Shown piece by piece: positions 45,759 to 54,632 of a DNA stretch of 64,000 nt (its first letter is position 1; each line of letters opens with the position of its first letter). The notes beneath the pieces were generated by a model. The model was not told where the DNA came from, ran no database searches, and saw nothing but the letters and a program-made list of their open reading frames with translations. Position numbers and translations under genes: made by a program. Source of the stretch: Candidatus Aenigmatarchaeota archaeon (lineage in GTDB: Archaea; Aenigmatarchaeota; Aenigmatarchaeia; QMZP01; QMZT01). The stretch is taken from contig JAPLVC010000006.1 of assembly GCA_026397315.1 (NCBI GenBank), positions 95,975 to 159,974 on the forward strand, read 5' to 3'.

Positions 45759-47117
45759 TCAAACAGGTATCACGTCTTCTTTGGCCTTGCATTTTTTCAG
45801 GTCTTCATAATAGTTGAAGGTGTAAGTCAGCTTCTGTCCAAATACGCCAGGATCTATTTCCACGGCATAGCTGCCTTCTGGTGGTTTTCCCTGACCACAA
45901 AGGAAATTGCTCACGGTATATTCATCAAAATACTCCCCGTAAACTTCTACGGTATTTTCGCAAAGCTTCTGTGAGCCGGGGCCACTGACTGTGATGTTTT
46001 CAACACCGAACCTGGAAAGGCCGTTATAGTATATATCTATGGTTGTCTGGTTGCCGCATACGTTGGCGCCGTCGATGAAAAGGCGGTCATTGACATAAAA
46101 CCTAAGCTCTGCCCTGCCAGGAGAACTCGACGGGTTAACAAAGCCTTTCATTTCTTCCAGTTTTTTCCAGCAGTTCTTGAAGTCGCGCTTTTCAAGGCAG
46201 TCTATTATCTTTACTTTTTTCATGATGAAAAAATTCGGGTTAAGTATTTGACCCATTTCGTTGCCTATTTTGCCGCAGCTGTTTTCCACGTCACTGTTCA
46301 GGTTCTCGAATATCTCACCACCGATGTAGCCCTCGTTAAGGCTGAATATTATCTGGTTTATGTAAGCGCCTGTCACCACCCCCTGCGTCATGAAGCTGTT
46401 CAGTGAAGTCGCTAGGAATGCATCGCCGTTTTCGGCGTATGTTGATGCCAGCAGGCTCGAATTGGTCAGAAGCCCGGTAGCTTTGCCCGCGGGACTGCTT
46501 GCCTGCATAATAGCGCCGCCGAGCTTATAGAACTCGCTTTCGTATGAGTCAAGCTCGCTCTCAAAGCTGGTCCCGAGATAAGAGCATACGCCCAGGTTAA
46601 AGGCAGACTCCTTGTCAAAGTTCTTTATCTGTTTGAAATCCGCGGATAGCTTTGCCTTCTGGTTTTCGATGCTTAGCGCGCTGTTCTCGAAGACGGGAGT
46701 TATCACGATTTTGCCGTCGTATTTGTCACTGCCTATGGAGTTGTTTGAAAACTTCCTGTAAAAATACAGGTTCAGGTTGCATTCAAGCGGATTGGCGCTC
46801 TGCAACTTTACCATAGGGTCGATAATGAAGTAACATGTGTGAAGGTTCTCGTTGCGCGTGCAAACATCGTTGTATGTTTTTATTTCTGTCTTGCCGCATG
46901 AAAGCTCAAGGTCGGCTTCAATCTCGTTTGCCTCGCTTCTCACGGTGACGTAGAACTGGTTATTCACCATCTGGCATTCAGGCGCGGTGTTTATTATCTG
47001 GCACGCGAAACTGGTTCTGGAAACTTCTATAATCTTGAAATCTTCCGCCATAGCGCTGGCGCTGAACAACAACACGAACATTGCCGCCATTAAGATTATC
47101 TTTTTCATGTCATACAC
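45759..47117 (-). CDS. secreted Cys-rich hypothetical protein
   Basis: Sec signal peptide MKKIILMAAMFVLLFSASAMA; AT-rich. Confidence 0.55.
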   Translation of the reverse strand: MYDMKKIILMAAMFVLLFSASAMAEDFKIIEVSRTSFACQIINTAPECQMVNNQFYVTVRSEANEIEADLELSCGKTEIKTYNDVCTRNENLHTCYFIIDPMVKLQSANPLECNLNLYFYRKFSNNSIGSDKYDGKIVITPVFENSALSIENQKAKLSADFKQIKNFDKESAFNLGVCSYLGTSFESELDSYESEFYKLGGAIMQASSPAGKATGLLTNSSLLASTYAENGDAFLATSLNSFMTQGVVTGAYINQIIFSLNEGYIGGEIFENLNSDVENSCGKIGNEMGQILNPNFFIMKKVKIIDCLEKRDFKNCWKKLEEMKGFVNPSSSPGRAELRFYVNDRLFIDGANVCGNQTTIDIYYNGLSRFGVENITVSGPGSQKLCENTVEVYGEYFDEYTVSNFLCGQGKPPEGSYAVEIDPGVFGQKLTYTFNYYEDLKKCKAKEDVIPV

Positions 47118-53171: not shown

Positions 53172-54632
53172 ATGAAAGGGTTTTTGATAGCGTCAATAAC
53201 TTTTCTGCTGATAGTTTCTTTTGCAGCTCATTTTGCGAATGCGCTTGAGAGCGGCACCGTTTTCTCCGTGGGTCCGGACACGGGATACAAGTGCGTTTAC
53301 GTGAACCTGCCCCAGGACCTCGGCATCGGCGCGGTTAACCAGAAATCAGAAACAATCATAGAGTCTAACAAAGTCAACAGCCCGTGGGTCGACACGACAT
53401 ACAGCAAGGTCGTCATAGAGCCCGGTGTGCAGAACAAGAATCCGGTATGCTTCTATTATTCAGGCAGGGAGGAAGGCGAATTTTCCTTTTACAGCATAAA
53501 GCTGTCGTCACTCGGTCTGGGGGTCAAGAATACGATTTCTGGCGGACTCTGCATCTCAAATTATGCGGACGTTGACACGGGTGTGGATACTGAAAATACA
53601 ACCGATGTTTGCAAGCTGCTCAATGACAATGCCGACATAATAGACCTGAGCTTCGCAGAGGACACGACACAGGCGAAACCGGGCGAAGTAGTGAGCAAAA
53701 CTCTTTACATCACATCTTATGCGAACCTACGCATAAGGCTGTCCATAGAATCCGACATGCAGAACGATTTTGGAGAGCCTGTCGTGACAACATCGCCTTC
53801 TAAACCCATGGTGAGCAGGACGTTCAAAATAAAGGCGCCTGACCATGAGGGTGATTTCGGGTTCACGGTAAAGGCCCAGGTAGAGGGATGCAACATAAAC
53901 GCCTGCACCAAGCAGAAGCAGGGCATAATATCCGTAAGCCAGACCGCAAAAGAGGGCTTTTCTGTTTCTGTCATACCCAGAAACATAAACCTGAAAAGTC
54001 CAGAAGAAATGCTTTTCAGGATCGTCATCACCAACAAAGAGGATACCAAAGATTTCACCATAGAGGCAACCTCGGACCTCTCGCTAGCGATAGAGCCGGA
54101 AACCAAGACGGTGAGCATCGAGAAGGATGAAGAAAAGACAACGCTTTTCAAAGTCACGCCGGGCAGCGAAAAGCTTTACAGACTTGATTTCAAGATAAGC
54201 ACGCCGGACGAGGAAAGCACAACTAGCGCATACGTAACCATAGGCGAACTGCTCAGCGACGCTCTCAGATACGCGGAAGAAGTGGAGAAGGACGCTTCGC
54301 CAAGCCTTTTGGAAGAAATAACAAAGGCCAAGGAAAATTATGAGGTAAAATACAACCAGACGTCTTATGGTGACGACCTGAAAGATTACGAGGAATTCCA
54401 GAAAACGCTCGATGACGCGCAAATGGAGATTGATGGCGGCGAGAATAACACGACGGTCACGCCGCCGAAACCTGACAATGGCGGCGGCTTCAACATCATG
54501 TTCATTGCCATACCCCTGGTCATCGTCGCAGCCGTCGTGCTGATTTTCATAGCCTTCAAGAAAGCGAAATCCGGTTCCAGCGATGCGGGTGGCTATCAGG
54601 CCGGCTACGGTCCCAGGGACGAACGCTATTGA
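53172..54632 (+). CDS. cell-surface protein with signal peptide and C-terminal TM anchor
   Basis: N-term MKGFLIASITFLLIVSFAAHFANA; C-term NIMFIAIPLVIVAAVVLIFIAFKKAK. Confidence 0.6.
   Translation: MKGFLIASITFLLIVSFAAHFANALESGTVFSVGPDTGYKCVYVNLPQDLGIGAVNQKSETIIESNKVNSPWVDTTYSKVVIEPGVQNKNPVCFYYSGREEGEFSFYSIKLSSLGLGVKNTISGGLCISNYADVDTGVDTENTTDVCKLLNDNADIIDLSFAEDTTQAKPGEVVSKTLYITSYANLRIRLSIESDMQNDFGEPVVTTSPSKPMVSRTFKIKAPDHEGDFGFTVKAQVEGCNINACTKQKQGIISVSQTAKEGFSVSVIPRNINLKSPEEMLFRIVITNKEDTKDFTIEATSDLSLAIEPETKTVSIEKDEEKTTLFKVTPGSEKLYRLDFKISTPDEESTTSAYVTIGELLSDALRYAEEVEKDASPSLLEEITKAKENYEVKYNQTSYGDDLKDYEEFQKTLDDAQMEIDGGENNTTVTPPKPDNGGGFNIMFIAIPLVIVAAVVLIFIAFKKAKSGSSDAGGYQAGYGPRDERY

Follow-up and report, generated by a model that had tools for sequence, protein, structure and literature searches.

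A conserved cell-surface gene cluster of Aenigmatarchaeota built around a large protein with a predicted prepilin-type signal

Described systems and the five-gene cluster

Archaeal type IV pilus loci commonly encode large Cys-rich proteins with signal peptides, C-terminally anchored S-layer-like proteins and immunoglobulin (Ig)-rich adhesins (PMC4858521, Makarova, Koonin & Albers, 2016; preprint 10.64898/2026.04.22.720090). For the DPANN archaea, host recognition and attachment are largely unknown, and their surface proteins mostly lack annotation. Here we present a concrete, conserved candidate set: a cluster of five open reading frames (ORFs; g1 to g5) at positions 45759-54632 of a 64,000-nucleotide stretch of DNA, hereafter the window, which belongs to a contig of a Candidatus Aenigmarchaeota (DPANN) metagenome-assembled genome (MAG). 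In our tentative interpretation, the cluster encodes a complex of the Aenigmatarchaeota cell surface, conserved and most likely with an adhesive role, that is built around g2, a protein with a predicted pilin-type signal, and placed in a short structure of the type IV filament kind.

Similar to the archaeal pilus accessory adhesins, the cluster and its relatives bring together large proteins with conserved Cys residues, proteins with a single C-terminal transmembrane (TM) helix and Ig-rich giants beside pilin-like genes; the published sets, in contrast, are defined around ATPase and TadC genes, which were not found near the g2 loci. As for g2 itself, it shares with the Methanococcus maripaludis pilins EpdA-E (Class III signal peptide/DUF361 proteins processed by EppA) a short basic leader ending in K/R-G/A, a Gln at +1 and a Glu-bearing hydrophobic helix. 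EppA needs Gln at +1 and its substrates carry Glu at +5; its sites are KG↓QV in EpdB and EpdC and RA↓QI in EpdA (PMC4371748; the arrow marks cleavage). The g2 site, KA↓QV, fits these EppA-type sites over four positions, as do the sites of its family, but the Glu comes two residues earlier, at +3. Moreover, g2 comprises 603 aa as opposed to approximately 70-150 aa in Epd pilins, matches no pilin-domain hidden Markov model (HMM), appears in its structural model to have a Pro-rich linker in place of the continuous alpha-1 helix, and is not accompanied by linked EpdL/J/K-type ATPase or platform genes at any of 36 g2 loci.

The Sulfolobus bindosome, made of sugar-binding proteins assembled by BasEF, offers another parallel, as its subunits have at least four times a pilin's size, carry a prepilin-type site and have a hydrophobic N-terminus as their only pilin-like element (PMC4371748). 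Unlike them, g2 possesses neither the fold of solute-binding proteins nor sequence similarity to them, and its partner is a Cys-rich secreted protein or a giant Ig-repeat protein, not the product of ABC-transporter genes. In turn, the bacterial FimU-PilVWX-PilY1 and type II secretion system GspH-K sets recall one class of related loci (type C, see below) by the order of small pilin-like genes, a large pilin-like gene and a gene for a very large secreted non-pilin, while Streptococcus sanguinis PilB, with its vWA module (PMC8179133), resembles those g2-family members that end in a VWA domain. This likeness is one of architecture only, with no sequence or detected fold similarity, and the window has no small pilins. 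The kind of system, i.e., surface proteins of archaeal pilus loci, is known already. New are a large family whose members, of 600 aa, carry an EppA-like site with its Glu shifted to +3, the constant partner slot after g2 filled by very different secreted proteins, and the link to a protein derived from peptidase family C25 minus its His; neither a Pfam model nor a published description was found for any of the five protein families in the literature searched. The main features are as follows.

45759-47117, minus strand: g1, 452-aa ORF as listed, secreted Cys-rich protein
45759-47108, minus strand: likely true extent of g1, 449 aa from ATG 47108, with a Sec signal peptide and no membrane anchor
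47110-48921, minus strand: g2, 603 aa, class-III-type signal
48898-48921, minus strand: g2 leader and predicted prepilin-peptidase site, MKMKA↓QVE, cleavage predicted after Ala5
48841-48906, minus strand: g2 hydrophobic helix, residues 6-27 as read from the sequence (modelled helix over residues 3-29)
48922-48956, no strand: divergent g2/g3 intergenic region, 35 bp, AT-rich, atTTATATAAATTTATTTATcaagtaattaataat
48957-52325, plus strand: g3, 1122 aa, secreted multidomain protein, C25-like
52335-53141, plus strand: g4, 268 aa, type-I membrane protein
53172-54632, plus strand: g5, 486 aa, type-I membrane protein
14648-15490, minus strand: A24-family prepilin/preflagellin peptidase, 280 aa, 32 kb from the cluster (PF01478, 31.6 bits against a threshold of 26.5)

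A preliminary description of this DNA had listed the same five ORFs, two on the minus and three on the plus strand, and all were recovered with the coordinates and lengths it gave. Its proposal that all five products are exported also holds: g1, g3, g4 and g5 start with Sec-type signal peptides (basic n-region, hydrophobic core, then cleavage site; predicted sites AMA↓ED, AAA↓SQ, SHA↓LK and ANA↓LE, respectively), and g2 with the class-III-type signal. The genes are tightly packed, with 1 nt between g2 and g1, 9 nt between g3 and g4 and 30 nt between g4 and g5, and the 35 AT-rich bases separating g2 from g3 include TTTATATAAA. From this layout we infer two divergent transcription units, g2-g1 and g3-g4-g5, driven from one short control region. 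Judging by archaeal TATA-box spacing, the segment 48922-48956 is likely the promoter region of both units, which would imply leaderless or near-leaderless transcripts. The real start of g1 is most likely ATG 47108 rather than GTG 47117, with 1 nt between it and the g2 stop, as in all homologues.

The class-III-type signal and structure of g2

The g2 protein begins with MKMKA-QVEFIVIIALVLIGVVVVVIA and has an identical counterpart (100%), P0001, in the MAG of a Candidatus Aenigmarchaeota archaeon. A word-indexed search recovered only 13 relatives; in their alignment K4, Q6, E8 and F9 never vary, even at identities as low as 24%. The family proved far larger in an exhaustive profile search, which pooled 2,320 representatives (at 50% clustering) at E ≤ 1e-3 and 220 at E ≤ 1e-30. 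We examined the N-termini of the best 150 of the 2,320 representatives with a search pattern that demanded Gln at +1. The motif directly follows a leader of 3-35 residues (mode 4) in 134 of them, with K or R at -2 in 125, G or A at -1 in 132, Glu at +3 in 125 and F, I or L at +4 in 114; the other 16 sequences, without the motif, are mostly fragments or have miscalled starts. The family N-terminus is near-invariant and consists of a variable leader, [KR][GA]↓Q-x-E-[FIL] and about 20 hydrophobic residues.

Such a combination of variable leader, fixed junction and hydrophobic stretch is the pattern of a cleaved prepilin-type signal. Like known class-III signals, g2 has a short basic leader ending in [KR][GA] ahead of the hydrophobic stretch, about 20 hydrophobic residues from +1 and, as in the EppA subtype (PMC4371748), Gln at +1; a conserved signal-peptidase-I site after the helix was not seen in the 13-homologue alignment. 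A class-III (prepilin-type) signal, not a plain anchor, is supported by these features, and the earlier suggestion that the g2 N-terminus resembles those of PibD substrates is strengthened by the retention of [KR][GA]↓Q-x-E behind leaders of variable length. The genome also encodes a candidate cognate aspartyl peptidase: the A24 gene at 14648-15490, announced as PibD in the preliminary description, retains both the Asp of the first TM helix (D20) and the GDGD motif and gives a weak FlaK_Arch match. Based on its sequence, this protein is the candidate enzyme for g2 processing; motif and enzyme together point to cleavage after Ala5, whereupon residues 6-27 would hold the mature protein in the membrane or a filament core. 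The [KR][GA]↓QxE junction is a simple rule that can be checked against existing class-III predictors, which may miss the g2-type signal.

The AlphaFold2 model of g2, built from 13 sequences (mean predicted local distance difference test score, pLDDT, of 73), suggests a helix at residues 3-29, a low-pLDDT Pro-rich linker at 30-41, a confident alpha/beta domain (about 42-350) opening with a helix at 42-71, a transthyretin-like beta-sandwich (about 371-460) and a second beta-sandwich (about 470-565). A Foldseek search of the PDB with this model returned beta-sandwiches of surface proteins, namely TIE of Bacillus anthracis, SlaB of Sulfolobus, teneurin, the TTL domain of carboxypeptidase D and pilins of Gram-positive bacteria, and nothing for the N-terminal domain. 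At the sequence level, g2 has no Pfam, NCBIfam or PDB match, and the PDB search with its profile gave nothing meaningful. Two members of the family bear a C-terminal VWA domain. The MAGs behind three entries (P0035, P0053 and the locus L025 on WVXP01000214.1) bear the names Peribacteraceae bacterium, Proteobacteria bacterium or Micrarchaeota, but the gene neighbourhoods of these entries are typical of Aenigmatarchaeota, so that errors of binning or labelling are the probable cause.

Related loci and the role of g2

A scan of species-representative genomes yielded 24 g2-family loci, nearly all from Aenigmatarchaeota, several genomes possessing 2-4 paralogues. Based on BLAST comparison of the neighbouring genes, the loci fall into three layouts, two of which share a flank.

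Type A: g5-g4-g3 <> g2-g1 (divergent), in the window, L002 and L011-L013; without g5 in L018 and L034
Type B (approximately 18 loci): a secreted protein of about 800 aa, one or two g2 homologues and a secreted protein of 1,700-2,300 aa
Type C (L008, L028-32, with L030 on the closed Aenigmatarchaeota chromosome CP070801.1): six small genes, a g2 homologue, a secreted protein of 1,200-1,800 aa, a g5 homologue and a divergent anchored protein of 550-590 aa
PCNA/OB-fold flank: 44550-45701 in the window, 3224-4350 in L008; also in L028, L031 and L011-13

The type-A arrangement recurs at 24-93% protein identity, with synteny conserved in at least seven genomes, and its repetition across L002, L011-L013, L018 and L034 argues against a chance grouping. 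Types A and B coexist in two genomes, JBGPQP (L012; L006/L023) and JAZDFI (L011; L021). A gene pair encoding PCNA and a 111-aa OB-fold protein (Rep_fac-A_3-like) flanks types A and C alike, which places both at the same chromosomal position; at that position, g2-g1 is inverted relative to the pair of g2 and giant-protein genes.

The type-C loci bear on the possible role of g2. Six small genes precede the g2 homologue in L008, L028, L029, L031 and L032, and five of them are pilin-like, with [KR][GA]↓(Q/A/M) and hydrophobic N-termini conserved across orthologues: M(K)[KR][GA]↓QMFI, KG↓AFQLSL, K[AG]↓MSVGMIFG, [KR][GA]↓Q....EY and K[AG]↓QT(T/S)M. One of the small neighbours in L008 gives a faint Pilin_N match (E 0.097); in Pfam, the small pilin-like proteins, like the giants and the upstream proteins of about 800 aa, otherwise matched nothing.

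The position directly after g2, held by giant proteins elsewhere, is taken in the window by g1. This protein contains 14 Cys (3.1%), invariant or near-invariant among its homologues, of which there are only 9, each at least 46% identical. Its residues 26-179 align with residues 1197-1384 of the giant proteins (hhalign probability 70%, E 4e-5), and PDB searches with the g1 profile and with g5 gave nothing meaningful. The extreme C-terminus of g1 (45759-45770) reads ..(V/I)-I-(P/L)-V-COOH in all ten g1 homologues, a conservation which suggests a docking or strand-insertion motif. A further resemblance ('..Y.FNYY') between g1 and the C-terminus of the proteins of about 800 aa was dropped because the hhalign comparison was not significant (E 0.079).

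Taken with the gene order of type C, these observations lead us to favour an adhesive complex associated with a short type IV filament, a reading we would place just short of probable. According to it, g2 would enter the membrane and be cut after Ala5 (K-A↓Q-V-E-F) by the A24 peptidase of the window, as motif and enzyme suggest. The cut would leave an N-terminal Gln and a 21-residue hydrophobic helix with Glu at +3, and the context in related genomes suggests that this helix might sit in a short type-IV-filament-like stalk or priming complex together with small pilins encoded elsewhere. As a minor pilin of large size, an 'adaptor', g2 would use its Pro-rich linker to tether the alpha/beta domain and both beta-sandwiches outside the cell. 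Translational coupling, position and the lack of an anchor suggest that g1, secreted by the Sec route, could dock on g2 as an exposed, disulfide-rich distal part; in paralogous loci its slot is occupied by 1,200-2,300-aa proteins sharing a g1-like module. The divergent operon, apparently expressed from the same 35-bp region, would add g3, a secreted C25-fold protein without its catalytic His that is probably a binding module with a variable Cys-rich tail, g4, its constant neighbour and probable membrane anchor, and g5, presumably an Ig-like type-I membrane protein. Use in a DPANN archaeon is likely to be attachment to a host cell or surface. The adaptor role of g2, docking of g1 on it, anchoring of g3 by g4 and the adhesive, probably host-directed function are what we infer from gene content and sequence.

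Several results weigh against a filament. Glu at +5, typical of EppA-type and bacterial pilins, was seen in none of the inspected g2-family members, and neither Pfam (Class_III_signal, Pilin_N) nor NCBIfam pilin N-terminal models matched g2 at E ≤ 1. The strict FlaFind pattern would presumably fail for g2 at +3 and +4. The Pro-rich break in the N-terminal helix means that a complete pilin module is absent from the g2 model, and the similarity of g1 to the giants is modest. As regards assembly machinery, no pilus ATPase or platform gene (T2SSE/FlaI/PilB; T2SSF/TadC/FlaJ) was found among window ORFs of at least 150 aa or in the 10 kb beyond the window start, where only housekeeping and oxidative-stress genes are present, and the window holds no small pilin-like gene. 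Within 10 kb of the g2 homologues at 36 loci, Pfam listings likewise show neither secretion ATPases nor platform proteins, and PEPCK was all that a Walker-A/GE[IVLM]R pattern search of these loci retrieved. This lack is weak evidence, given that in archaea the genes for pilins often lie apart from those of the machinery (PMC4371748). Of the adhesion pilus or surface appendage originally proposed, the conserved exported set and the class-III signal are borne out, with pilin-like neighbours in other loci, while the assembly genes are not nearby.

The alternative that survives best, although we regard it as somewhat unlikely, is bindosome-like anchoring: the peptidase processes g2, whose helix then anchors it and tethers g1 in or under the S-layer, in an envelope complex without a filament. 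The comparison arises because g2 has a pilin signal without a recognisable full pilin module, the modelled Pro-rich linker following right after the helix. It is consistent with the size of g2, about four times that of a pilin, as in the Sulfolobus bindosome subunits with class-III signals (PMC4371748), with the S-layer stalk protein SlaB among the best fold matches, with the window's lack of ATPase, platform and small pilin genes, and with the location of the A24 gene next to an S-layer gene. Yet five related loci have five small pilin-like genes packed closely together with the g2 homologue and in its orientation, which is hard to explain without joint assembly. Moreover, the bindosome itself needs a PilB/PilC-type system (PMC4371748), and g2 lacks similarity to solute-binding proteins. 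We consider it improbable that the g2 N-terminus is merely an uncleaved type-II signal anchor, K-G-Q-x-E serving, e.g., topology or partner binding. Such an anchor would suit the lack of pilin HMM matches, Glu at +3 rather than +5 and the unlinked machinery, but not a motif that is fixed to the helix while the leader varies from 3 to 35 residues, as for a cleaved leader; the site is also the same as proven EppA sites, small neighbours in related loci share the site type, and an intact A24 peptidase is present.

The filament-associated complex can be extended into a broader proposal, which we regard as unlikely in its entirety. In this proposal the g2 family would be an undescribed 'adaptor pilin', largely specific to Aenigmatarchaeota, that keeps of a type IV pilin only the cleaved helix (Gln at +1, Glu at +3) and couples to a pilus tip, or to the membrane, one of several interchangeable secreted adhesins: g1, Ig-repeat proteins of 1,200-2,300 aa or a fused VWA domain. 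With the C25 pseudo-peptidase and its variable Cys-rich head, it would form a host-attachment apparatus of episymbionts. If g2 is processed and binds its partner, the family would mark attachment loci in Aenigmatarchaeota genomes and widen the known range of prepilin-peptidase substrates. Should the filament part not hold, what is left is still a conserved anchored surface complex, ordinary in kind.

The divergent operon and the rest of the window

The g3 protein consists of a signal peptide, a weak TPM-like domain, alpha/beta domains, a C25-like domain and a Cys-rich tail.

50481-51194, plus strand: Peptidase_C25-like (clan CD) domain of g3, residues 509-746 (PF01364, 27.8 bits against a gathering score of 23)
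50811-50813, plus strand: codon of Asp619, at the clan-CD His position (hhhY-x-D-H-G) in an 18-sequence alignment
50904-50906, plus strand: codon of Cys650, putative catalytic Cys (hhhhAAAC; VVIAAAC650), in the same alignment
51237-52322, plus strand: Cys-rich C-terminal region of g3, residues 761-1122, 36 Cys

The relation of g3 to family C25 (gingipains, PorU; clan CD), missed in the preliminary description together with the His-to-Asp change, is supported by the PF01364 score above threshold, and the NCBI name of the corresponding gene model (P0014) is C25 family cysteine peptidase. In the alignment of 18 g3 sequences, a hydrophobic strand is followed by x-D-H-G, about 30 residues further on by another hydrophobic strand with A-C, and by GDPT where the domain ends. 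Seventeen of the 18 retain Cys650, which is missing only from the N-masked, truncated copy of L034, and all full-length homologues contain the Ala-Cys motif and GDPT. In contrast, 13 of the 18 sequences, among them the most distant ones as well as P0019 and P0022, have the His of the His-Gly motif, while the window copy and the four relatives closest to it have Asp instead; the window protein reads IIIYDDD619G, with no other His close by (IIIYDDDGSNSAW). Position 619 is what we take to be that of the catalytic His, from the published clan-CD His-Gly/Ala-Cys motif and not from structural superposition. The occurrence of His in some lineages and Asp in others constitutes a natural experiment.

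Unlike its C25 relatives, the g3 domain is part of an archaeal protein of 1,122 aa, where it lies between the alpha/beta domains and the Cys-rich tail, and it has no PDB-level match, sequence searches with g3 both as single sequence and as profile yielding nothing meaningful. A PDB search with a distant relative (P0025), aimed at mapping the gingipain catalytic residues, was swamped by its leucine-rich repeat region. The AlphaFold2 model of g3 is usable just for about residues 30-480 (pLDDT 33-65 over the C25 domain), and Foldseek gave no match at E ≤ 0.001, only a weak similarity to the TPM protein 2lt2. The loss of the catalytic His suggests that the window copy is probably not a working protease and more probably a binding module. 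That g3 is instead an active peptidase, gingipain- or PorU-like, which processes or attaches proteins of the locus or digests host surface proteins, is quite improbable: the Pfam match, the retained Ala-Cys and GDPT, the His-Gly motif of the 13 sequences and the constant linkage to g4 would agree with it, but not Asp in the window copy and its closest relatives with no His nearby, the low-confidence model of the C25 region or the lack of a PDB sequence match.

The last 362 residues of g3 contain 36 Cys (9.9%, as compared with 1.6% in long ORFs of the window), so the Cys richness noted earlier is real; the Cys-knot fold once proposed for this region was an interpretation without support. The tail varies strongly, with only P0015 aligning through it, which at the sequence level is the pattern of a fast-changing, outward-facing part. 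One homologue (P0016, on a 17,189-nt ENA contig) is 84% identical to g3 over the N-terminal 39% and has a Cys-rich C-terminal part with Hint/intein-type Pfam domains in place of the g3 tail; a Hint domain is unusual in a secreted surface protein. Homologues P0016-P0020 also carry, after residue ~440, an insertion of 100-350 aa with repeated 'NFYFLY'-like motifs, possibly a beta-propeller, that is not found in the window copy. The NCBI model P0014 has 1091 aa, 31 residues fewer than the window ORF (97% of it; 48957-49049 affected), and apparently starts downstream so that the signal peptide is lost, while orthologues keep the longer, signal-bearing start.

Both g4 and g5 end in a TM helix and a basic tail, as first described. 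g4 has a signal peptide, a TM helix at 53058-53123 and a KKKGK tail, and is located beside a g3-type gene in every locus having one, including a second pair in L018. g5 is composed of a signal peptide, an Ig/fn3-like region (weak Pfam matches to fn3_6 and Ig_VWA7), a Pro/Gly stalk and a TM helix at 54489-54557, followed by KKAK and a 20-aa tail; homologues with 28% identity lie downstream of g2 and the giant protein in the type-C loci L008, L028 and L031. The option of g5 as a second class-III protein was rejected, as its MKG↓FLIAS start is not conserved and the ANA↓LE signal-peptidase-I site follows.

Cleavage of g4 and/or g5 by an archaeosortase at a PGF-CTERM-like signal, with lipid anchoring, is highly improbable. 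In its favour, the C-termini are tripartite, made of a small motif, a TM helix and a basic cluster, the g5 helix is introduced by a conserved GFN[WI]M (54480-54500; PGF in the L002 orthologue) and related contigs carry Exosortase_EpsH-family genes about 8 kb upstream of the type-B loci L004 (1990-2610), L005 and L006 (1-533). Against it, the PGS situated 8 residues ahead of the g4 helix is unique to the window copy and absent from all seven orthologues, which largely refutes the idea for g4 and with it the PGF-CTERM-like tail of the preliminary description, the g5 motif fades in distant homologues and, unlike in PGF-CTERM, 15-25 residues extend beyond its basic cluster, and NCBIfam sorting-signal models matched neither the full g4 and g5 proteins (E ≤ 1) nor their isolated tails (E ≤ 10). 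No archaeosortase gene was found in the window. The Exosortase_EpsH-family genes occur in at least two lineages and are not adjacent in L010.

Outside the cluster, the A24 gene directly adjoins an S-layer gene at 12072-14414 on the minus strand (S_layer_C / S_layer_MJ), and 5558-11830 on the plus strand encodes three GT2 glycosyltransferases, a PMT_2/GT22 enzyme and a 492-aa multi-TM protein without known family; the whole region 5558-15490 looks like one of cell-envelope biogenesis. Housekeeping genes of the window include those for PCNA, ribosomal proteins, EF-2 and topoisomerase I. That the cluster is a mobile or viral island beside tRNA-Gly was considered and rejected, since different lineages have the synteny and the PCNA/OB-fold flank in common; a viral-contig scan revealed no viral relatives. 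That tRNA-Gly (55104-55178) is the only one reported by ARAGORN, while Rfam indicates tRNAs at 55851-55969 (plus strand) and 60981-61130 (minus strand) of 119 and 150 nt for a 71-position model, which by their length may be intron-containing archaeal tRNAs. An 883-aa surface-type protein with matches to Cadherin, Big_9, PKD and tandem-95 repeats is encoded at 61329-63980 on the minus strand; its true start is uncertain, as the listed GTG at 63980 lies just 20 nt from the window end. Finally, a free-standing 247-aa LAGLIDADG-like protein is encoded at 42775-43518 on the plus strand, and a LAGLIDADG_3 protein is also found downstream of the giant-protein gene in L004/L005.

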